A stretch of DNA of 64,000 nt from a bacterium (GCA_027310625.1 DAIDAM010000002.1:65123-129122); one strand, 5' to 3'; positions 25,673-57,709 are shown, numbered from the stretch's first letter. A program made the numbers and translations. The notes: generated by a model not told the origin, from the letters alone.

Positions 25673-25827
25673 AAATGAGCATGCATTAAGGGCTAATGGT
25701 GGATGCCTAGACATCAAAAGGCGACGAAGGACGCGGCGTAGCTGCGATAAGCTTCGGTGAGGTGCGTAGCAACCGATGACCCGGAGATTTCCGAATGGAG
25801 CAATCCAACACAGTAAACCTGTGTTGT

Positions 25828-25969
25828 CGTGCCTCACTATCGTTCGGCACTATTGCTATCGCGCGAATGGGCGAATTATTACGAACATACGAATTATTAA
25901 ACTGATTCGTAAGTTCGTATCCTATTCGTAAATTCGTGCGATAGAAGTGGCGAGCGGCAGCGAGGCACG
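25828..25969. repeat. 23S palindromic insertion, family A copy 1 (CGCGCGAATnnGCGAAT...TTACGAAC.TACGAAT...TTCGTAAATTCGTGCGATAGAAGTGGCGAGCGGCAGCGAGGCAC)
   Basis: Flanked by complementary GTGCCTCAC...GCGAGGCAC; interrupts conserved 23S sequence before GAAACATCTCAGTA. Confidence 0.6.
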
Positions 25970-26049
25970 ACGCAAACCCGCTGAAGTGAAACATCTCAGT
26001 AAGCGGAGAAAAAGAGAACAATCAAGTCCTCTGTTTCACATATCCCATC

Positions 26050-26235
26050 AATTTGACAGAGCGAATCTTGAGACAGATTCGCGGCGCGAGGAGCGCAGTG
26101 TGCCGGTAGGCACATAAGCGACGAGCAACAAAGAAGCTGGCCAAGATTCGCCTGCCCGAAAGGGAAACGAAAAATTGGCCGATTTCTGTGTTGCTCCTCG
26201 TCGACGTAGCTTTGGCTACAATCTCCTCGTTGCGC
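26050..26235. repeat. 23S insertion, family C copy 1 (GATTCGCGGCGCGAGGAGCGCAGTGT...ATAAGCGACGAGCAACAAA...GTTGCTCCTC)
   Basis: Second copy at 30650-30900. Confidence 0.5.
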
Positions 26236-26341
26236 CTTGAAGTCGTCTCATTCTTTCGCTTTCAAATTTGACGGTATATGTGAAATAGAGGACGTTATTC
26301 CCTCAGTAGCGGCGAGCGAAAAGGGAAGAGCCGAAACTAAT

Positions 26342-26475
26342 CGTGCCTCACCGCCGTTCAGCACTCCATCGCGCGAATAGCCGAATTTTTACGAACGTAC
26401 GAATGAAACCAATTCGTATGTTCGCGCCGATTCGTAAATTCGTGCGATAGAAGTGGCGAGCGGCAGCGAGGCACG
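26342..26475. repeat. 23S family A copy 2
   Basis: cgtgcctcaccgccg...ttcgtaaattcgtgcgatagaagtggcgagcggcagcgaggcacg. Confidence 0.6.
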
Positions 26476-26507
26476 ATTGGGGTAACAAGAGAGAAACGCT
26501 CTTAAAG

Positions 26508-26580
26508 TGTCACGTGTCATGGGTCATGTGTCAGGATTTTTCTTGATACTTGATACTTGACACCTGATACTTTGAGGTGG
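26508..26580. repeat. Tandem heptamer tract in the 23S (GTGTCAC/GTGTCAT/GGGTCAT/GTGTCAG then CTTGATA x3)
   Basis: Direct reading. Confidence 0.5.
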
Positions 26581-26813
26581 AGAAGTTACAAAATTTTTGC
26601 CTAGCTGAATCTGCTGGAAAGCAGAACCAAAGACGGTGAAAGTCCGGTAGGCGAAAGGCAAAAATCTTCTTAGTTTCCCGGCGCACATAATTTATGTGCG
26701 CAGCCGAGCACAAAACTTGTTTTGTGCTCTGGTTTATCTTCAGTACTTCGAGGCAAAAAAACTTCGAAGGAATTAGCGAGTACTATCTCGCAAGGCTAAA
26801 TACTTTTGATGAT

Positions 26814-26850
<37 letters not shown>

Positions 26851-26904
26851 CAGGCCGGTGAGGCCGTTGAAATAGAACCTGAAACCATTTGCCTACAAGG
26901 ATTC

Positions 26905-27033
26905 GGAGCTCTCCGCTATCGCTTTGAGCTCCTCTATCGCGCGAATATGCGAATTCTTACGAATGTACGAATTCGTAAATTCGTATTTTTTTCGTAATTC
27001 GTGCGATGGGGAACTCCGAGCGGTAGCGAGGAG
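26905..27033. repeat. 23S family A copy 3
   Basis: ctatcgcgcgaatatgcgaattcttacgaatgtacgaattcgtaaattcg...ttcgtgcgatgggg. Confidence 0.55.
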
Positions 27034-27140
27034 TGACGAAGTGCCTATTGAAGAATGAGCCAACGACTTATGGTGCATTGCTTGTGTAAGTACCTTTAAG
27101 GGATGTACGCGCAGGGAGACCGAGTCTTAATAGGGCGTAT

Positions 27141-27266
27141 CGTGTCTCACTATTGTTCGACACGTTATCGCGCGAATAAGCGAATAATTACGAACTTACG
27201 AATTCGTATATTCGCAACCGATTTGTAAATTCGTGCGATAGAAGTGGCGAGCGGCAGCGAGGCACG
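27141..27266. repeat. 23S family A copy 4
   Basis: cgtgtctcactattg...gcgcgaataagcgaataattacgaacttacgaattcg...ttcgtgcgatagaagtggcgagcggcagcgaggcacg. Confidence 0.6.
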
Positions 27267-27607
27267 AAAAGCAGTGCATCATAGACCCGAAGCCGGATGA
27301 GCTTGCCTTGGCCAGGTTGAATTTCGCAGAAATGCGGGAGGAGGACCGAACTGGTGGGTTGTTCAAAACCCTCGGATGAGCTGAGGCAAGGAGTGAAAAG
27401 CTAATCGAATTCGGTAATAGCTGGTTCTCTCCGAAATAGTTTTAGGACTAGCGGTGAAAGTTACCTGTGGGGGTAGAGCTACTGGATGATTCGTAAAGGC
27501 CGAAAGGCCGGCGAATCAATCAAACTCCGAATACCGCAGGCCATATTTCACTAGTCAGACTGTGGGGGCTAAGCTCCATGGTCAAAAGGGAAACAGCCCA
27601 ACGCTCA

Positions 27608-27720
27608 ACTTCGTTTCGCTTCATCGCGCGAACAAGCGAATTTTACGAATGTACGAATCTGTATTCGTAAGTTCGTAATTTATTCGTAAATTCGTGCGAT
27701 GGATGCGAGCGGAAACGAGC
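27608..27720. repeat. 23S family A copy 5
   Basis: catcgcgcgaacaagcgaattttacgaatgtacgaatctgtattcgtaagttcgtaatttattcgtaaattcgtgcgatgg. Confidence 0.55.
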
Positions 27721-27954
27721 ATCAGATCATCATCTAAGGCCCCTAAATGCGCGCTAAGTGTTAAAGGCAGTCGTAATCCATAGACAGATAGGAGGTTGGC
27801 TTAGAGGTAGCCATCCTTTAAAGAGTGTGTAACAACTCACTATTCGACTCGCCTCGCTTCGCGAGAGCGAAGCTGGGTGGGACCGCGGCGCCGAAAATGT
27901 ACCGGGGCTAAGCGCGCTGCCGAAGATATGAATCGTTCGCTTCGCTCACTGTTG

Positions 27955-28040
27955 CAATCCGAACAATCCGAATTCCATCCGAATGTTCCGAATATTCGGG
28001 GCATTCGGATGCATTCGTAGGTTCGGATTGCGGTAGCGAG
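27955..28040. repeat. Family B copy 2 inside the 23S
   Basis: caatccgaacaatccgaattccatccgaatgttccgaatattcggggcattcggatgcattcgtaggttcggattgcgg. Confidence 0.55.
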
Positions 28041-28587
28041 CGGAGCGAGCGGTGGTAGGAGAGCATTCCCGTTGCGCCGAAGGAAGATCCGCGAGGACTT
28101 CTGGAGCGGCGGGAAGAGAGAATGTTGGCATGAGTAACCACAATCCTAATGAGAAATTGGGACCCCGAAAATCCAAGGTTTCCGTGGCACTGGCAATCAA
28201 CCACGGGTTAGTCGGCCCTAAGGCGATGGCGAAAGCCGCAGCCGATGGACAGACGGTTAATATTCCGTCACTCCCGCAGTTTTCAATGGAGGGACGAGAT
28301 TCAGTAGATGGAGCGCCTTATTGGTTTGGCGTCCTTGCGCGAGGATTCCCGGCTGGAAAATCCGTCGGGATGCGTTCAATCGCAAATCCCAGCAAAAAGG
28401 CAACTCCGATGTTTTCATTGGGGGAGTTCGTCGAGCGGATCTCCAAGAAAAACTTCTAAGGTTAAAATTGCGGAATCCGTACCGTAAACCGACACTGGTG
28501 GATAGGGCGAGAAGCCCAAGGGGAACGAGTGATTCGCCGTTAAGGAACTCGGCAAAAAAGCGGCCGTAAGTTAGCGATAAGGCCTGC

Positions 28588-28660
28588 CTTGTTCGGATGT
28601 CGGACTTCGGACGTCAGATTTCGGATAATCTGGCATCTGATTTCTGAAATCCGATATCTG
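28588..28660. repeat. Palindromic TCGGATG/TCAGATT heptamer tract in the 23S
   Basis: ttcggatgtcggacttcggacgtcagatttcggataatctggcatctgatttctgaaatccgatatctgaac; the two halves are reverse complements. Confidence 0.5.
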
Positions 28661-29290
28661 AACTAGGCCGCAGCGAAAGTTTTCCTGGCGACTGTTTACC
28701 AAAAACACAGCTCCCTGCGAACTCGCAAGAGGATGTATAGGGGGTGACGCCTGACCGATGCGAGAAGGTCAAGACTGCCTGTCGCATCTCACTAAGGTGA
28801 GATGCTCTGATATTCATTGAAATTAGTTCGCCGAAGGCGAACGAAAATTAATAGAAATTATTGGTGATAAATTTCGCGAGCGAAGCGAGCAAATTTCTAT
28901 AAATTTCAGCGAAGCGAATATCAAAAGCACCGAACTTTAGTGAGGTGCGGCGGAGTGGTTCAAGCCCTCGTCAATGTCAGCAATAACTATAATTGTTCTA
29001 AGGTAGCGCAGTTCCTTTCCGGGTAAGTTCCGGAGCGCACGAATGGCGTAACGACTGGGAAACTGTCTCGACGGCGAGCTCGGTGAAAATGCGATTCCCG
29101 TGAAGACGCGGGATACCTGCAGCGGGACGGAAAGACCCCGGAAGCTTTACTGCAGCTTGGTATTGGCTTTAAGGTCTTGATGCGTAGCGTAGTGGGGAGG
29201 GTTTGAAGCTCCGATTTCGGTCGGAGTGGACCCGACAATGAAACACCCATCTTTAGGACTTTAAATTCTAACCATACCAGAACCCCTCTT

Positions 29291-29390
29291 TGCGCATAAG
29301 CGCAAAGCGCAGAAGGACGCAGAATGAACGCGGACTAACGCAGAATTTTTTTCAGCGTGGGTCTGCGTAAAGTCAGCGTGAGTCAGCGCT
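29291..29390 (+). repeat. Composite palindromic mini-element (ACGCAGA arm + TCAGCGT arm) in the 23S, copy a
   Basis: gcgcagaaggacgcagaatgaacgcggactaacgcagaa + tttttttcagcgtgggtctgcgtaaagtcagcgtgagtcagcgc, closed by cctctttg ... caaagagg. Confidence 0.6.
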
Positions 29391-29630
29391 TTGTTTACTC
29401 GTGAACAAAGAGGGGAAGCTGGTGAGGGACAGTGCTTGGCGGGCAGTTTCAATGGGGCGTTGTCCTCCTAAAGAGTAACGGAGGAGTCTATTAAGGTCGG
29501 CTTGGCCCGGATGGAAACCGGGCTGGACGCGTAAAGGCAGAAGCCGGCTTAACTGCAAGACCTACAAGTCGCGCAGATGCGAAAGCAGAGCTTAGTGACC
29601 CGACCACTATGTCAGTGCTTCGCACTGACC

Positions 29631-29708
29631 GCAGAATAACGCGGAACGAACGCAGAACTACGCAGAACTTTCAGCGTAAGTCAGCGTCAAGTCCGCGTGA
29701 GTCCGCGG
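29631..29708 (+). repeat. Composite palindromic mini-element in the 23S, copy b
   Basis: cgcagaataacgcggaacgaacgcagaactacgcagaac + tttcagcgtaagtcagcgtcaagtccgcgtgagtccgcgg. The right arm is near-identical to the lepA and cca copies. Confidence 0.65.
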
Positions 29709-29917
29709 CCAATGCGGAGCATTGGCTCTTCATAGAAAGGTGGGAGACACCGGATAAAAGCTACTCCGGGGATAACAGGCTGGTGAGATCCGAGAGTCCC
29801 TATCGACGATCTCGCTCGGCACCTCGATGTCGGCTCATCCTAGCGCGGGGCTGGAGAAGGTCCCAAGCGTTTGGCTGTTCGCCAATTAAAAGGATACGTG
29901 AGCTGGGTTCAGACCGT

Positions 29918-30585
29918 CAAAATAACTGAACCGAGGACATCAAGCACGGCGGCTCGTCGCCGCAAGGCGACCCGAATAAATCGACTCATATCGGTGGAGT
30001 CCTAGCACGGCAACCTGTCATATGCTAGGATAATACCGAGGGAAGTTGCATATGTTGAATCTTTCGTCAACGCAAAAAGCATATTTAGCGGGATTTCTAG
30101 ACGGCGATGGGAGTATCTACGTGCGGCTGAAACCAAATACCGATTACAAGTATGGTTTTCAGGTTGCACCGTACGTTATTCTTTTCCAATCGTCCAAAGA
30201 ACGTAAGAAATTTGAAAAGGTTTGTTCCTTAATTGGTCTCGGATACATTCGAGAAAGAAAGGATAGAATTTTGGAATACACCATCGGCAGGGAAAAAGCA
30301 ATCAAGTTTTTTCTTAAAATGGTGATTCCGTATCTGATTCTAAAAAAGAAGCAAGCAATTCTTACGTTGGAAATCCTGGATATGAAAATGAAAATCAAAA
30401 ACAAGAACGATTTTCAGGCGTTGATGAATAAGATAGATATTTTTCGTAATCTGAATTATTCGAAAAAGCGTAAAAAGCATGTGTTAACCTCGTAGAGACT
30501 ACACGTCGATCCCGAGCACATAAAGCGTTGCGTGCTTCGGTGGTGGTATAGTCCGACACTCTTAGTAATAGGAGATTACAGTATG
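29918..30585 (+). mobile_element. Presumed group I intron in the 23S at the I-CreI-type site (between CGT and CGTGAGACAG), carrying a LAGLIDADG ORF
   Basis: Conserved exon sequence GGGTTCAGACCGT | ... | CGTGAGACAGGTCGGTCCC is reconstituted if 29918-30585 is removed; the insert ends in G and the 5' exon ends in T. Confidence 0.6.
30046..30495 (+). CDS. LAGLIDADG homing endonuclease, single-motif homodimeric type
   Basis: KAYLAGFLDGDGSIYV motif; 149 aa; AT-rich; located inside the rRNA insert. Confidence 0.85.
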   Translation: MHMLNLSSTQKAYLAGFLDGDGSIYVRLKPNTDYKYGFQVAPYVILFQSSKERKKFEKVCSLIGLGYIRERKDRILEYTIGREKAIKFFLKMVIPYLILKKKQAILTLEILDMKMKIKNKNDFQALMNKIDIFRNLNYSKKRKKHVLTS

Positions 30586-55063: not shown

Positions 55064-55834
55064 TTACGTCTGTTGCGGCAGCTGCGAAGTTGTGATTTTC
55101 AGCCAGTTCTCATCGGTAGCTTTCGGCTTGATGGCTTCCGAGCCCCTCTTGCAGAGAGGGCACGTCGCCGCCCGCCAGTCCTGGACGCGCCAGTTGACGA
55201 CAGGTAAAACCTTGTACTTCCACAGGGGGTTGAGAGGGTTGATGTAAATCGTTTCCAACCCGCCGCGGTTGATGATGACTGGATCGTACGGCAAGATGTC
55301 AACGGAGCGATTTTTTTTCGTGACCTCCATTACCGCTTCTTTGAAGCCTGTACCTCTCGTGCAGAAGTCCTCAACGAGAAGAAGGGTTGCTCGGTCGGGG
55401 ATTTCCGTAACGAGATTGATGCGTCCGCTCGCTTCGTCTTTTTCCATCTTCGCGAGCTTTGCGCCGATGGTCTCTGAAATCATCTCGCCGAGCTTCGTTG
55501 CGCCTTTTGGAATGCCCGCGACATAGTCGGGGACGTCGTCGGGAAGAATTTCAATCAGGCGCATGACAATCTGGTTTGCGATGATCTTACAGATGTTATC
55601 GGGCTCAAGAAGAATCTTAGAGGCGAAAAACCCGTCGCTATGGAGCCCGGACTTCAACTCCGCGTGCAATCCGACCCTGCCGTTCTCCGCGGCTTCGTAA
55701 TCGTATCTCCACCACGCGCCGAGCACAGTCGCCATGTGAACCACTTCGTCGGCCGTGAGCGCCCGCGGCGGCACCTTGTTCGGGTCCAGCGTGCGCAGCT
55801 GCTCGGCGTCCATTTGCAGAATGTTGATGTTCAC
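55064..55834 (-). CDS. pyrE: Type I phosphoribosyltransferase, probable orotate phosphoribosyltransferase
   Basis: PRPP-binding motif LLLVEDFCTRGTGF; adjacent to pyrF; higher GC than most of the window. Confidence 0.5.
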   Translation of the reverse strand: MNINILQMDAEQLRTLDPNKVPPRALTADEVVHMATVLGAWWRYDYEAAENGRVGLHAELKSGLHSDGFFASKILLEPDNICKIIANQIVMRLIEILPDDVPDYVAGIPKGATKLGEMISETIGAKLAKMEKDEASGRINLVTEIPDRATLLLVEDFCTRGTGFKEAVMEVTKKNRSVDILPYDPVIINRGGLETIYINPLNPLWKYKVLPVVNWRVQDWRAATCPLCKRGSEAIKPKATDENWLKITTSQLPQQT

Positions 55835-55847
55835 GATTTCACCTCCT

Positions 55848-56555
55848 TTACATTTGTCCGCCTCGGGCGGATCTGTACTGGTTGACGAGATTGCGGAGTT
55901 TGTTGGGATATGTCGCGCCGACGACGAGCCCGCAGTTGTTGTTCTTGTTCCAGACCTTTGCGACGTTGCGTGCGATCATCTTGTAAAGCGGTTCGGTTAC
56001 TCGTCCTCCCATACCGACTGCGACCGGCATATCCTGGAACTCGCCCGCGCCCGGGTTGGATGTGCGGCAGATGACGAAAATGCCTTTGTTCTTGTATTTC
56101 AGAAACGGCGCCATCGCTTCGTGGCCGAGGTACGGGTGAACCGTGATCGCATCCGCGCCGAGGTAGTCAAACGCGAACTTCGCGTAACCCTCGTTGGTGT
56201 TGCCGATGTCGGCGCGTTTAGCGTCGAGAATCACAGGAACGTCCGGCGCAATTTCGTGAATATTCGCGACGGTATGCCGCAAGGCCGCGATGCCTTCTGC
56301 GCCGTACGCCTCGTAAAACGCGGCGTTCGGCTTGTAGGCGCACACGAAATCCATGGTCGCTTCCACGATTGCGCGGTTGAACGCGACAATGGTTGGTCCA
56401 ACCTCGATACCGACGGGAGGATCCCACCTCAAAGGTCGCATGACGTCGTGAGAGATTCTAGGTATCTTGCCGAACTCGCTGTCCAGCCCGACGGAGACAA
56501 GGTTGCCGCGCGACCACTGGTTCTCAAGCATTTGCCTGAAGTTTCTGTCGTTCAT
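55848..56555 (-). CDS. pyrF: Orotidine 5'-phosphate decarboxylase
   Basis: VILDAKRADIGNT and VSVGLD motifs; 235 aa. Confidence 0.7.
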   Translation of the reverse strand: MNDRNFRQMLENQWSRGNLVSVGLDSEFGKIPRISHDVMRPLRWDPPVGIEVGPTIVAFNRAIVEATMDFVCAYKPNAAFYEAYGAEGIAALRHTVANIHEIAPDVPVILDAKRADIGNTNEGYAKFAFDYLGADAITVHPYLGHEAMAPFLKYKNKGIFVICRTSNPGAGEFQDMPVAVGMGGRVTEPLYKMIARNVAKVWNKNNNCGLVVGATYPNKLRNLVNQYRSARGGQM

Positions 56556-56669
56556 GTTCTGACTCTCCTCTTCAGTAGTATTCGGTTGTGTTTCAGCCCG
56601 AAAATTCGGGCCCTATTGCTGGGATAACTTTACAGTATGGTGACGCCGGAAATCAAGGAGGAAATTTTT

Positions 56670-56687
56670 TGTGCGCGCGGAAGGGAT
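56670..56687. repeat. 18-bp direct repeat TGTGCGCGCGGAAGGGAT duplicating the 3' end of tRNA-Ile (second copy at 56859-56876)
   Basis: Identical 18-mer at both positions; att-core-like. Confidence 0.55.
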
Positions 56688-56821
56688 CCGCTTCGCTAGA
56701 ACCTTACGCCTCACCCCGACCCCCGTCTGGGACACCTTCTGGTTTCCCATTCCGTCCCGACTGCGGTCGGGACGACCTTCCAACACAGGGTGATGCTAGG
56801 TTCAATCCCTGCTCATTGGAA

Positions 56822-56856
56822 TAAAAATACCCGTGACTAAGTCACGGGTATTTTTA
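56822..56856. terminator. Bidirectional terminator aaaaatacccgtgac-taa-gtcacgggtattttt
   Basis: Perfect 10-bp stem flanked by A-run and T-run. Confidence 0.6.
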
Positions 56857-56860
56857 TCTG

Positions 56861-56932
56861 TGCGCGCGGAAGGGATTGAACCTTCGACCTTCCCCTTATC
56901 AGAGGGATGCTCTGCCACTGAGCTACACGCGC
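56861..56932 (-). tRNA. tRNA-Ile (GAT)
   Basis: GCGCGTG paired with CGCGCGC acceptor, anticodon loop CTGATAA, T-arm GAAGG-TTCAATC-CCTTC; CCA not encoded. Confidence 0.8.
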
Positions 56933-56965
56933 GATTTATTTTTGCACGTCTGTCCCATCCATTTT

Positions 56966-57040
56966 GTGCACCCTGCAGGGATCGAACCTGCGGCCTTTTC
57001 CATGTCAAGGAAACGCCCTGCTTCATCCCGCACCTTTATG
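56966..57040 (-). pseudogene. tRNA-Val-like pseudogene: intact anticodon arm (GAC) and T-arm, no pairing 5' acceptor strand
   Basis: ...TTTCC-TTGACAT-GGAAA-AGGCC-GCAGG-TTCGATC-CCTGC-AGGGTGC-A, but no complementary GCACCCT upstream. Confidence 0.4.
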
Positions 57041-57112
57041 TGCGTCTTGGAGGGATCGAACCTCCGACCTTTTGCGTGTCATGCAAACGCTCTACCACTG
57101 AGCTAAAGACGC
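57041..57112 (-). tRNA. tRNA-Val (GAC)
   Basis: GCGTCTT paired with AAGACGC acceptor, anticodon loop ATGACAC, T-arm GGAGG-TTCGATC-CCTCC. Confidence 0.8.
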
Positions 57113-57141
57113 GTAATTAAAAAAGCACGGGGCAGGTTGGG

Positions 57142-57384
57142 TTATGCACGCAATTTCCTTTTAAGCCATTCTCTTCCCTTGCCTCCTTTCAAGAGTTTTT
57201 CTCTGTATCGCGCGCTTTTAAGAGTATCCAATTCTTCTTTGTAAATCAACTCAAATGGCCTAGTAAGGCAGGTATATTTGCTTTTTCCCGTGTTGTGCTC
57301 ATGCAATCGTCTCTCAATATTGTTAGTGCAACCAATGTAATAACGTCCATTCTTTAAACTGCGGAGAACGTAGACGTAAAACAT
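57142..57384 (-). CDS. Small GIY-YIG nuclease family protein
   Basis: MFYVYVLRSLKNGRYYIGCTNNIERRLHEH GIY-YIG motif; 80 aa. Confidence 0.8.
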   Translation of the reverse strand: MFYVYVLRSLKNGRYYIGCTNNIERRLHEHNTGKSKYTCLTRPFELIYKEELDTLKSARYREKLLKGGKGREWLKRKLRA

Positions 57385-57396
57385 TGATGATAGTGC

Positions 57397-57470
57397 GTGA
57401 TGCAGGGATCGAACCTGCGGCCTGTCGCCTCAGGCGACCGCTCTACCACTGAGCTAAGAGTGCGTTTGAA
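57397..57470 (-). pseudogene. Degenerate tRNA-like sequence (T-arm and D-arm present, acceptor strands not complementary, 3-nt anticodon loop)
   Basis: GCACTCT-TA-GCTC-AGTGGTA-GAGC...GTCGCC-TGA-GGCGAC...GCAGG-TTCGATC-CCTGC-ATCACGC; CGCACT repeated at both ends. Confidence 0.3.
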
Positions 57471-57499
57471 ATGGTATGGGACTAACCGCGCAAAAATAT

Positions 57500-57709
57500 C
57501 TACTGCGCCAAGCCCTTCAAGTTTAATCGTTTGGCGCCTTCCAAGTCAAAACTTGCTCCGGTTTTTGCTCCACTGCCGGCGGTTATCGCCTTGCTTACAT
57601 TTAGAGCGATGAATCCAACTCCCCAAATGAAAGCGTAGGCGAGCGCCGCAAGAAGGATGGCCGCAATGCCACCCAAAATCATTTCGTTCTTATGTTTTAT
57701 CCCCCACAT
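57500..57709 (-). CDS. Small membrane protein
   Basis: 69 aa with two hydrophobic helices. Confidence 0.35.
   Translation of the reverse strand: MWGIKHKNEMILGGIAAILLAALAYAFIWGVGFIALNVSKAITAGSGAKTGASFDLEGAKRLNLKGLAQ

Follow-up and report, generated by a model that had tools for sequence, protein, structure and literature searches.

Halves of a tRNA-Val(GAC) gene flank a 425-bp insert with a minimal GIY-YIG nuclease gene: a candidate selfish element in a bacterial tRNA operon

In a 64,000-nucleotide stretch of bacterial DNA (GCA_027310625.1, DAIDAM010000002.1:65123-129122; hereafter the window), a cluster on the minus strand holds intact transfer RNA (tRNA) genes for tRNA-Val(GAC) and tRNA-Ile(GAT), two tRNA-like relics that we call T3 and pV, and among them a short open reading frame (ORF) for a GIY-YIG nuclease (Table 1). 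An initial annotation of the same sequence had listed the nuclease gene as part of the story, had described two tRNA pseudogenes, and had likened a repeated tRNA-Ile 3' end to the scar of an excised or decayed integrative element. We judge it probable, with room for doubt, that the region is a tRNA operon colonized by a selfish element of very small size, the core of which is a minimal GIY-YIG nuclease of the Slx1/UPF0213 type.

We determined which of the tRNA-like copies score as tRNAs. ARAGORN called only Ile and Val in the cluster, confirming the tRNA-Val(GAC) of the initial annotation, and reported no tRNA for T3 alone or for pV alone. T3, which reads GCACTCT TA GCTC AGTGGTA GAGC G / GTCGCC TGA GGCGAC / AGGCC GCAGG TTCGATC CCTGC ATCACGC A, scores 43.1 bits against the Rfam tRNA model (57463-57394), with four acceptor non-pairs and a shortened anticodon loop; three of its seven acceptor positions pair, and a hairpin of 14-15 nucleotides (nt) stands in for its anticodon arm. 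Likewise, pV (GCGGGAT GA AGCAGGGC G / TTTCC TTGACAT GGAAA AGGCC GCAGG TTCGATC CCTGC AGGGTGC A) reaches 24.9 bits, below the gathering score of 29, over model positions 9-63 only (57022-56975), forms four of seven acceptor pairs and has a collapsed D arm. The two pseudogenes of the initial annotation are indeed non-functional relics, but they are not separate ones: they are reciprocal halves of one tRNA-Val(GAC), a relation that had been missed.

The 5' acceptor strand of T3 pairs at all seven positions with the 3' acceptor strand of pV (56968-56974), a combination that we designate A, and the 5' strand of pV, GCGGGAT (57031-57025), pairs at six of seven positions with the 3' acceptor strand of T3, a combination that we designate B. 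The joint chance of both cross-pairings is about 2e-5. When positions 1-25 of T3 were joined to pV from its anticodon stem onward (57013-56967), ARAGORN reported a canonical tRNA-Val(gac) with a flawless cloverleaf. Given the reciprocal acceptor pairing and the perfect tRNA formed on joining, T3 and pV are the halves of one native tRNA-Val(GAC) gene, A, into which 425 bp have been inserted where the D stem meets the anticodon stem. Reconstructed A is identical at 65 of 72 positions to the uninterrupted tRNA-Val(GAC) of a syntenic, distant locus (L084) and at 58 of 72 positions to the intact tRNA-Val within the insert. The 3' part of B matches the intact tRNA-Val of an orthologous locus (L105) at 27 of 30 positions, the acceptor strands being GCGGGAT/ATCACGC for B versus GCGCGAT/ATCGCGC for L105. 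T3 and pV share 23 identical nucleotides (positions 44-66), and given this shared stretch the crossover could formally lie anywhere from 26 to 66; a junction between positions 26 and 27 (written 26/27) is the solution that yields a perfect tRNA, and it agrees with the layout at other loci.

From 5' to 3', the insert begins with a 15-nt palindromic hairpin and positions 44-73 of B; the nuclease ORF comes next, followed by an entire tRNA-Val(GAC) and, last, by a decayed copy of positions 1-26 of B. Read as a circle, its ends form a pseudo-tRNA made of B 1-26, the hairpin and B 44-73. The intact tRNA-Val(GAC) carried by the insert acts as a replacement for the split gene. We rejected a group I intron or a transfer-messenger RNA (tmRNA) in the region, as ARAGORN and Rfam found neither; the Intron_gpI covariance model had no match at E <= 10 in 56400-57700, and the interruption lies between 25/26 and 27, not in the anticodon loop. 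As far as these searches reach, the relics are therefore not functional tRNAs with introns, in keeping with the initial annotation: they lack the signature of a group I intron, and the insert itself supplies an intact tRNA-Val(GAC).

Table 1. Features of the tRNA cluster and its flanks, in coordinates of the whole 64-kb window and in 5' to 3' order on the minus strand
Feature	Coordinates	Strand	Remarks
Candidate promoter TTGACT-18-TAAACT	57520-57549	-	about 57 nt 5' of the tRNA cluster; consensus match alone
Relic T3	57463-57393	-	tRNA-like; A 5' part, hairpin and B 3' part
A 5' part: positions 1-25 (acceptor 5' strand GCACTCT and D arm) of the split native tRNA-Val(GAC)	57439-57463	-	
Palindromic hairpin GTCGCC-TGA-GGCGAC, left end of insert, in place of the anticodon arm	57424-57438	-	
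B 3' part: variable loop, T arm, 3' acceptor strand ATCACGC-A-C	57393-57423	-	ends 8 nt before ATG
GIY-YIG nuclease gene, 80 amino acids, minimal Slx1/UPF0213 type (by profile and model)	57142-57384	-	intact, all catalytic residues
Intact tRNA-Val(GAC)	57040-57112	-	ARAGORN; Rfam 72.5 bits; 29 nt after ORF
Degenerate B 5' part, GCGGGAT GA AGCAGGGCG, D arm collapsed; right end of insert	57014-57031	-	
A 3' part: TTTCC-TTGACAT-GGAAA anticodon arm, variable loop, T arm, AGGGTGC, discriminator	56967-57013	-	
Relic pV (B 5' part and A 3' part)	about 57031-56967	-	
Whole 425-bp insert	57014-57438	-	junction ambiguous by 3 nt (GCG)
Intact tRNA-Ile(GAT)	56860-56932	-	ARAGORN; Rfam 70.6 bits
18-mer copy in tRNA-Ile 3' end	56859-56876		
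Hairpin of bidirectional terminator type (17-18 bp) between runs of A and T	56820-56858		directly after tRNA-Ile
Inverted tRNA T arm copy and 3'-end-like sequence	56796-56820	+	AGGTTCAATCCCT, the tRNA-Ile T arm on the opposite strand
GC-rich hairpins	56714-56773		GTCCCGAC-TGCG-GTCGGGAC at 56754-56773 (gtcccgactgcggtcgggac); two smaller at 56714-56749
Solo 18-mer copy, displaced tRNA-Ile 3' end	56670-56687		preceded by T-arm-like hairpin GAAG-CGGATCC-CTTC
pyrF	55848-56555	-	PF00215; context, outside element
'pyrE', divergent phosphoribosyltransferase-like	55064-55834	-	256 amino acids

The product of the ORF matched PF01541 at 59 bits (cut-off 22.6; E = 5.8e-16) over residues 1-70, which bears out the small GIY-YIG gene of the initial annotation and its place in the story. 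Residues Y5, Y16, G18, R26, H30 and E62 are invariant in 21 sequences. Compared with known structures, the family profile matched 1zg2 (UPF0213 BH0048; E = 1.3e-13) and 1ywl (EF2693; 2e-12), and it also matched SLX1 (6.6e-5) and I-TevI (7e-3). The AlphaFold model, with a predicted local distance difference test score of 88.6, has a three-stranded sheet with flanking helices. Its top Foldseek matches were 1zg2 and Slx1, with template-modeling (TM) scores of 0.64-0.70 and root-mean-square deviations (rmsd) of 2.1-3.1 Å, and a fold comparison gave a TM score of 0.68 (rmsd 2.1 Å) for Slx1 versus 0.53 for I-TevI and 0.51 for UvrC. These comparisons of profile and predicted fold place the protein in the Slx1/UPF0213 (YhbQ-type) minimal GIY-YIG branch, and not with I-TevI or UvrC. 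The family comprises 8,999 clusters at 50% identity (E <= 1e-10), and neither NCBIfam nor PADLOC has a model specific to it. Many of the database gene calls (P0002, P0004, P0173-P0322) are 99-126 residues long, with 20-40 extra N-terminal residues, and some have two domains. Such calls are consistent with gene callers reading through a tRNA-like leader and with the existence of tandem copies.

We scanned one genome per species, obtained 559 relatives and examined the best 80 loci. A same-strand tRNA lies within 70 nt of the ORF in 57 of these 80; 40 loci have it downstream, 14 upstream and 3 on both sides. The partner tRNAs cover at least 15 amino-acid identities, and the design occurs in Patescibacteria, Bacteroidota, Ignavibacteria, Omnitrophota, Chloroflexota and other groups. 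Copies of parts of the partner tRNA accompany the ORF: at 35 of 42 tRNA-downstream loci a copy of the 5' part of that tRNA lies within 220 nt before the ATG, and at 10 of 17 tRNA-upstream loci a copy of the 3' part follows the stop codon, while none of 39 control flanks contained a partial tRNA copy. The duplication starts exactly at tRNA position +1 in most loci. The modal ORF/tRNA overlaps are -10 and -23 nt, the stop codon being the tRNA's own TAG (positions 8-10 or D loop). Since the stop codon lies in the tRNA, RNase P cleavage of the transcript would remove it. An ORF lacking its own stop codon is found at L015, L017, L019, L025, L027, L029, L031 and further loci; it runs on into the downstream tRNA and ends at the conserved TAG of positions 8-10 or at a D-loop GGATAG.

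In the clade to which the window belongs, the partners are tRNA-Val, Gly, Ala and Ile. Positions 1-26 of the upstream copy, and those from 44 to about 56, are the same as in the intact tRNA; the ATG lies in the T loop of the copy, and its 17-nt anticodon arm is exactly swapped for a 14-15-nt hairpin, GTCGCC-N2-3-GGCGAC. The same hairpin occupies the same tRNA position at L004-L009, L012, L016, L017 and L097. Two loci with the tRNA upstream (L002, L010) show the mirror form: an intact tRNA, the ATG, the ORF, a stop codon within a tRNA-derived TAGAGCG, the hairpin, and positions 44-75. The joints lie at the bases of the anticodon arm (26/27 or 43/44) and at tRNA +1. Other clades carry other palindromes, CCTGCCTGCCGGCAGGCAGG and CCCGCC...GGCGGG, for which the D, anticodon or T loop of the copied tRNA is the site. 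The former, 20 nt long, is identical in Bacteroidota, Chlorobiota, a Dehalococcoidia genome and a Yanofskybacteria genome (Patescibacteria). At two loci (L028 1394-1488, L061 1396-1490) it is cleanly inserted at 37/38 of a tRNA-Arg(TCT) copy, which ARAGORN reports as a 95-nt "tRNA", and at L031 (about 1880-1990) a single tRNA copy holds it twice, once in the D loop and once in the anticodon loop.

Perfect GC-rich hairpins are five-fold denser near the ORF than elsewhere in the same loci (2.73/kb vs 0.53/kb), with a peak at no more than 40 nt before the ATG. Their outer stem pairs covary (GT/AC, CT/AG, TG/CA, TC/GA, CC/GG) around a constant GCC...GGC tip, and these compensating changes indicate that the pairing is a conserved feature. 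Protein clades follow both the tRNA partner and the hairpin type, and tandem and truncated ORF copies occur at L015, L017 and L018. One clade has no tRNA partner. Its member L076 lies in 23S ribosomal RNA (rRNA), where the homolog (1479-1767) occupies a 288-nt insert that replaces a 4-nt loop at the tip of a 23S hairpin (about model position 285) within a 19-bp enclosing stem; the enclosing stem of L077 has 13 bp. A long stem enclosing the ORF, the layout of RNase III-processed intervening sequences, was considered for the family and rejected, being found at the rRNA-type loci L076 and L077 only and not at tRNA-type loci. At L049 (1501-2308), a homolog lies about 250 nt upstream of a tmRNA gene and has no adjoining tRNA.

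Relatives of the window, Liptonbacteria by source names, keep the gene order TopA, DprA, a 176-residue protein (55-61% identical), a 70-residue protein, tRNA-Val(GAC) and tRNA-Ile(GAT). One of them, L097, has a 79%-identical nuclease gene in another arrangement than the window: a tRNA-Val 5' relic with the same hairpin is followed by an intact tRNA-Val and, after 9 nt, by the ORF, beyond which come a 5' relic of tRNA-Ile and an intact copy of that gene. The intact tRNA-Val of L097 occupies the place homologous to the B 3' part of the window, 9 nt before the ATG, and the ORF thus lies on different sides of tRNA-Val in the two genomes. No nuclease ORF was found at the orthologous loci L099, L101, L103 and L105, so that the ORF is present in two and absent from four examples of a conserved locus, as expected for a homing gene. 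At L101, a tRNA-Val (acceptor GCGCGGT/ACCGCGC) is split around another intact tRNA-Val and has a hairpin for its anticodon arm. L099 (4245-4660) and L105 (3840-4230) each have a cassette, devoid of an ORF, that contains an intact tRNA-Ile and is bounded by imperfect inverted repeats of about 29 nt (…CCGAAATTTTGG / CCAAAATTTCGG…). It is inserted in the anticodon loop (CTGA/TAAGACAG) of an older tRNA-Ile, the two ends of which still pair (GGGCGTG / CACGCCC at L105), and the whole looks like a self-replacing tRNA cassette. Presence and absence of the ORF at one locus, together with repeated replacement of tRNA genes in place, support mobility.

In the metagenome scan, L084 was the only other locus with the 176-residue neighboring protein, which is 25% identical there, and a look-up of the 69-residue neighboring protein for empty-site contigs yielded none. 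Three independent Logan assemblies of the same organism (L081-L083; SRR5161788, SRR5161795, SRR5161805) are identical to the window, with no empty-site variant. Their contigs all break within the cluster, at window position 57079, in the anticodon region of tRNA-Val, or at 56745, just before the GC hairpin; these breaks fit repeats or population variation at the two positions.

The second part of the locus is the tRNA-Ile repeat. The 18-mer TGTGCGCGCGGAAGGGAT occurs exactly twice in the window on the plus strand, which bears out the repeat of the initial annotation; 171 nt lie between the copies, and the coordinates given there needed slight correction. Two matches were found in 0 of 100 shuffles, and the window holds no further copy with up to three mismatches. 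The copy at 56859-56876 comprises the end of the T loop, the 3' strand of the T stem, the 3' acceptor strand, the discriminator and CA of tRNA-Ile(GAT). The filler between the copies (56688-56858) was likewise rightly described as a terminator and GC-rich hairpins, and it folds far better than shuffled sequence (z = -6.9 as RNA, -7.5 as DNA). Its stability is alike on both strands, its source being perfect palindromes, and an inverted T arm copy forms with tRNA-Ile a long inverted repeat around the terminator. Its GC-rich hairpins belong to the type that is enriched near GIY-YIG/tRNA units at other loci, and the principal one is close to a hairpin, CTCCGAC-TGCG-GTCGGAG, inside a tRNA-Ile relic of L105. 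Rfam "hits" such as mir-230 (56799-56883) and Plastid-ycf2 were rejected as antisense tRNAs or the terminator inverted repeat.

Across the fetched loci, the last or first 16 nt of a tRNA often recur nearby, at a spacing of 270-370 nt where the ORF lies between or 40-170 nt where only hairpins do. Solo repeats of the short spacing occur at L005, L031, L033, L040, L046, L056 and L059, and a 5'-end repeat occurs at L088. The tRNA-Ile pair of the window (offset 174 nt) matches this solo class. By analogy with these loci, the repeat and its 171-bp filler are most likely an ORF-less relic of the same kind of event, an assignment in which we have moderate confidence; the suggestion of the initial annotation that the repeat is a tRNA 3' end duplicated by an insertion-type event is borne out to that extent. 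Synteny with relatives stops right after tRNA-Ile (about 56560-56860), where the window has pyrF-pyrE and the relatives (L097, L099, L103 and L105) have Ddl/MurC, GtrA or SerRS. A rearrangement breakpoint thus coincides with the hairpin-rich segment.

Taken together, the anatomy suggests how such an element might move, and we propose that it spreads like a homing element. The nuclease would break a tRNA gene, probably by way of a hairpin or cloverleaf DNA structure rather than a long sequence. We propose recognition of structure because the joints lie at arm bases and at +1, because the protein is of Slx1 type with no DNA-binding domain, and because a relative sits at the tip of an rRNA hairpin; joints at helix bases (26/27, 43/44, +1) are only suggestive of structure-specific cleavage of hairpin or branched DNA. 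The break would then be repaired by host recombination with the element-borne pseudo-tRNA, which would leave the element inside the tRNA gene. As a circle, each unit would hold a pseudo-tRNA, X, made of positions up to 26, the hairpin, and positions from 44 onward. X opened to the left of the hairpin and inserted at 26/27 would produce the tRNA-downstream design, and X opened to the right and inserted at 43/44 would produce the tRNA-upstream design. Where X and the target stem from the same tRNA, insertion would regenerate an intact gene beside the ORF and displace only a harmless fragment. In the window, termini of type B would have met a target of type A, leaving T3 and pV as dead hybrids for which the carried tRNA-Val(GAC) would substitute.

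Expression could likewise depend on the tRNA. The tRNA promoter would drive the ORF, and in the tRNA-downstream design the G-rich strand of the T stem could serve as a ribosome-binding site. In the tRNA-Val group, the ATG lies 0-9 nt after the tRNA 3' end, so that 3' processing of the tRNA could give a nearly leaderless messenger RNA. The site at 57520-57549 is a candidate promoter of a T3-ORF-Val-pV-Ile transcription unit, judged by its consensus match; promoter-like sites in the region are not more numerous than in shuffles.

Several observations weigh against a mobile, homing-like element. No domain beyond PF01541 was found in the 80-residue protein, and with no DNA-binding module sequence-specific homing is unproven. 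Viral carriers are wanting, with no relatives in IMG/VR and, in phage records, only matches of 34-42% identity. The ORF-less orthologous loci (L099-L105) still hold tRNA fragments and hairpins, so that a resident nuclease gene is not required for relics to persist, or perhaps even to arise. An uninterrupted A was found in no close relative, and L084, the best "empty" example, is distant; close ORF pairs mostly share a flank, which fits vertical descent. For the tRNA-Ile repeat, extension past 18 nt is not significant (292 of 2000 shuffles score as well), a tblastn search for a decayed GIY-YIG ORF between the repeats and elsewhere in the window returned the intact gene only, and the tie to the GIY-YIG element family is the weaker one of analogy. 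Finally, the mechanism as a whole is read from the anatomy of the loci.

Some of these points would suit an explanation in which nothing is mobile. Here, tandem tRNA duplication by slippage or unequal crossing-over, followed by decay, would have produced the relics, and the GIY-YIG gene would be an ordinary cellular gene of repair or RNA metabolism, co-transcribed with the tRNAs and provided with a leader and hairpin that serve expression or processing. In its favor, a protein clade retains one tRNA partner over long times, and flanks are common to close pairs; the position of the hairpin, 12-40 nt ahead of the ATG, and a T-stem G run that can act as a ribosome-binding site also fit. A 2006 survey, moreover, found prokaryotic Slx1-like domains fused or adjacent to tRNA methyltransferase genes (PMC1564403). 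However, simple tandem duplication cannot yield the hybrids A5'-B3' ... B5'-A3' without the parental genes, and it does not account for an ORF that is present or absent at an orthologous locus and lies on different sides of tRNA-Val in the window and L097. The tandem and truncated ORF copies, the range of partners (at least 15 tRNA identities and an rRNA hairpin) and the stop codon borrowed from the tRNA, which points to insertion and not to an ancient operon, also argue against it. We consider this explanation unlikely.

Less likely again is that the two 18-mers are attL and attR of a tyrosine- or serine-recombinase element at the tRNA-Ile 3' end, decayed to 171 bp, with the other relics reflecting unrelated decay. 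The repeat is exact and, running from the T loop to 2 nt past the 3' end, covers the portion of a tRNA in which integrase att cores typically lie; synteny breaks right after tRNA-Ile, and GC content is somewhat higher over pyrF-pyrE. Yet neither an integrase nor any other ORF lies between or beside the repeats, and no recombinase was found among the neighboring ORFs. The pyrF-pyrE genes are outside the repeats and are a conserved pair in related Paceibacteria, and no third 18-mer copy brackets them as an island. Similar solo tRNA-end repeats with hairpins recur at loci of the GIY-YIG family, and an att scar leaves the reciprocal tRNA-Val halves unexplained. An integrase scar at tRNA-Ile, the view of the initial annotation, is improbable, with nothing specific in its favor.

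We assign a smaller probability still to the idea that 56688-56858 is a functional noncoding RNA or a cis-regulatory leader of pyrF, with the 18-mer as a tRNA-like module in it. The segment has a very stable fold (z about -7) with a multi-branched core, and it lies upstream of pyrF on the same strand, past a terminator. This stability, however, is equal on both strands and comes from perfect palindromes; the segment matched no Rfam family at E <= 10 in the search for a small RNA that the initial annotation had suggested; the pyrF upstream regions of relatives L085 and L088 are unrelated; and the inverted tRNA T-arm copy inside is what recombination debris would be expected to contain. Least probable of all, to the point of being hardly credible, is continued use of the split tRNA-Val, either with the 425-nt insert as an unconventional intron or with the two relic RNAs assembling into a two-piece tRNA: both acceptor helices (A 7/7, B 6/7) could form between the relic RNAs, and A has kept its anticodon and T arms, in which the differences from other tRNA-Val genes are compensatory, but there is no group I intron signature, no bacterial pathway is known to splice at 26/27, the intact tRNA-Val(GAC) in the insert makes the split gene unnecessary, and the D arm of B is decayed.

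The genes flanking the cluster showed changes of their own. The high-GC pyrE-pyrF pair of the initial annotation held up for pyrF, whereas "pyrE" is only a weak match to the phosphoribosyltransferase family (E = 0.22), relatives having a clear 209-residue phosphoribosyltransferase after pyrF; the rise in GC is modest (0.56-0.59 vs 0.44-0.50 in adjoining DNA). The window pyrF lacks about 67 residues near its C-terminus, including the PGIGAQGG phosphate-binding loop, that are present in all seven aligned homologs, and given the missing loop the encoded enzyme is probably inactive. We rejected the possibility that 5' coding sequence of pyrF is hidden in the structured segment, since nothing is missing from the N-terminus and the loss of about 67 residues is internal. 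Elsewhere in the window, the 23S rRNA gene (25676-30030) is 4355 nt long against a model of 2925 positions and therefore holds about 1.4 kb of insertions, and a LAGLIDADG ORF (PF00961, E = 6.9e-12) lies at 30046-30495, directly after the annotated 23S end. Such 23S insertions and an endonuclease ORF are typical of the rRNA insertion sequences of the candidate phyla radiation (CPR).

Among known systems, the likeness to SegB and other free-standing genes of T-even phages is that of a GIY-YIG gene among tRNA genes: SegB, from the tRNA gene cluster of T4, encodes a homing endonuclease of the GIY-YIG type and presumably spreads when it cuts an allele that lacks it and is copied in at repair, with co-conversion of flanking tRNA sequence (PMC2330249). 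Unlike the protein described here, SegB belongs to the I-TevI/UvrC lineage, is much longer than 80 residues, has a DNA-binding region and resides in a phage. Seg-type proteins combine a nuclease with a DNA-binding module, whereas ours is a single domain. For SegB, moreover, no partial tRNA duplication, swap of a hairpin for the anticodon arm or tRNA-supplied stop codon has been described. A study of CPR rRNA genes also reported GIY-YIG ORFs, in insertion sequences that are not introns; these ORFs sit atop stem-loops or at their bases, have no associated ribozyme, and were taken as sparse and as outside homing, and the study does not mention tRNA genes (0 occurrences; PMC11270868). Those inserts share with our element the bacterial radiation and a small GIY-YIG ORF in a stable-RNA gene, and the homolog L076 lies in just such a non-intron 23S insert. 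The window copy, in contrast, has tRNA-Val and not an rRNA gene as its host; the target is a tRNA gene, the tRNA is duplicated or replaced, and the family extends far beyond the CPR.

The UPF0213/YhbQ/Slx1-like stand-alone domains (1zg2, 1ywl) share the fold, the sequence family and the lone catalytic domain with the window protein. They are uncharacterized, and no tie to tRNA genes, partial tRNA duplications or palindromes was found for them in the searchable literature. As with integrase islands and prophages at tRNA genes, a piece of tRNA is carried, the gene is rebuilt and the displaced piece forms a direct repeat; in their behavior, the 18-mer pair at tRNA-Ile and the pseudo-tRNA of the element resemble the attP of such islands. 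A direct repeat of the tRNA 3' end is present, but no recombinase lies within or beside the repeats, the units measure 0.2-0.45 kb, the 5' side of the tRNA is often duplicated and the joints fall at anticodon-arm bases and not inside a core at the 3' end. An interrupted tRNA gene and an encoded nuclease are also features of group I introns that carry homing endonuclease genes in the anticodon loops of bacterial tRNAs, and of split or intron-containing tRNA genes of archaea; here, however, there is no ribozyme, the site is 26/27, the halves are paired with foreign halves, and a spare tRNA takes the place of splicing. With REP/RAYT, IS200/IS605 and fungal mitochondrial GC palindromes, our loci share short GC-rich palindromes tied to a small nuclease gene and stems that covary. 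They differ from REP/RAYT and IS200/IS605 in having a GIY-YIG and not an HUH nuclease and hairpins at defined places in tRNA copies, and there is no evidence of high-copy dispersal.

A full-text literature search, with most subscription journals outside its reach, found no description of the tRNA-nested design or of CCTGCCTGCCGGCAGGCAGG. We regard it as probably a new form of homing-endonuclease-like selfish element, and there is a substantial chance that it is a distinct class. More tentatively, and as a fuller claim that we would not yet favor, these loci may make up an undescribed, phylum-spanning class of mobile element in which a minimal Slx1-like GIY-YIG nuclease is paired with an "anticodon-arm-swapped" pseudo-tRNA as attachment site. 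Such a class would home by structure into stable-RNA genes (tRNA and rRNA hairpins), cutting at the base of an arm, and would rebuild or replace the tRNA, use the tRNA promoter and end its ORF at the tRNA's TAG, all with no recombinase and no DNA-binding domain.

If the proposed reading of a selfish element is true, the tRNA genes of many bacteria host a very small selfish element, and the uncharacterized UPF0213/YhbQ-type "Slx1-like" bacterial nucleases would gain a biological role. It would explain odd tRNA pseudogenes, "intron-containing" calls such as the 95-nt tRNA-Arg of L028, breaks in metagenome contigs, and over-long gene calls through tRNA-like leaders. It would also offer a testable case of a homing-type nuclease whose choice of target is guided by structure and not by sequence, and it would link the GIY-YIG inserts of CPR rRNA genes to a wider colonizing of stable-RNA genes. 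Finally, it suggests that such elements can drive tRNA gene turnover, with old alleles giving way in place to new ones.

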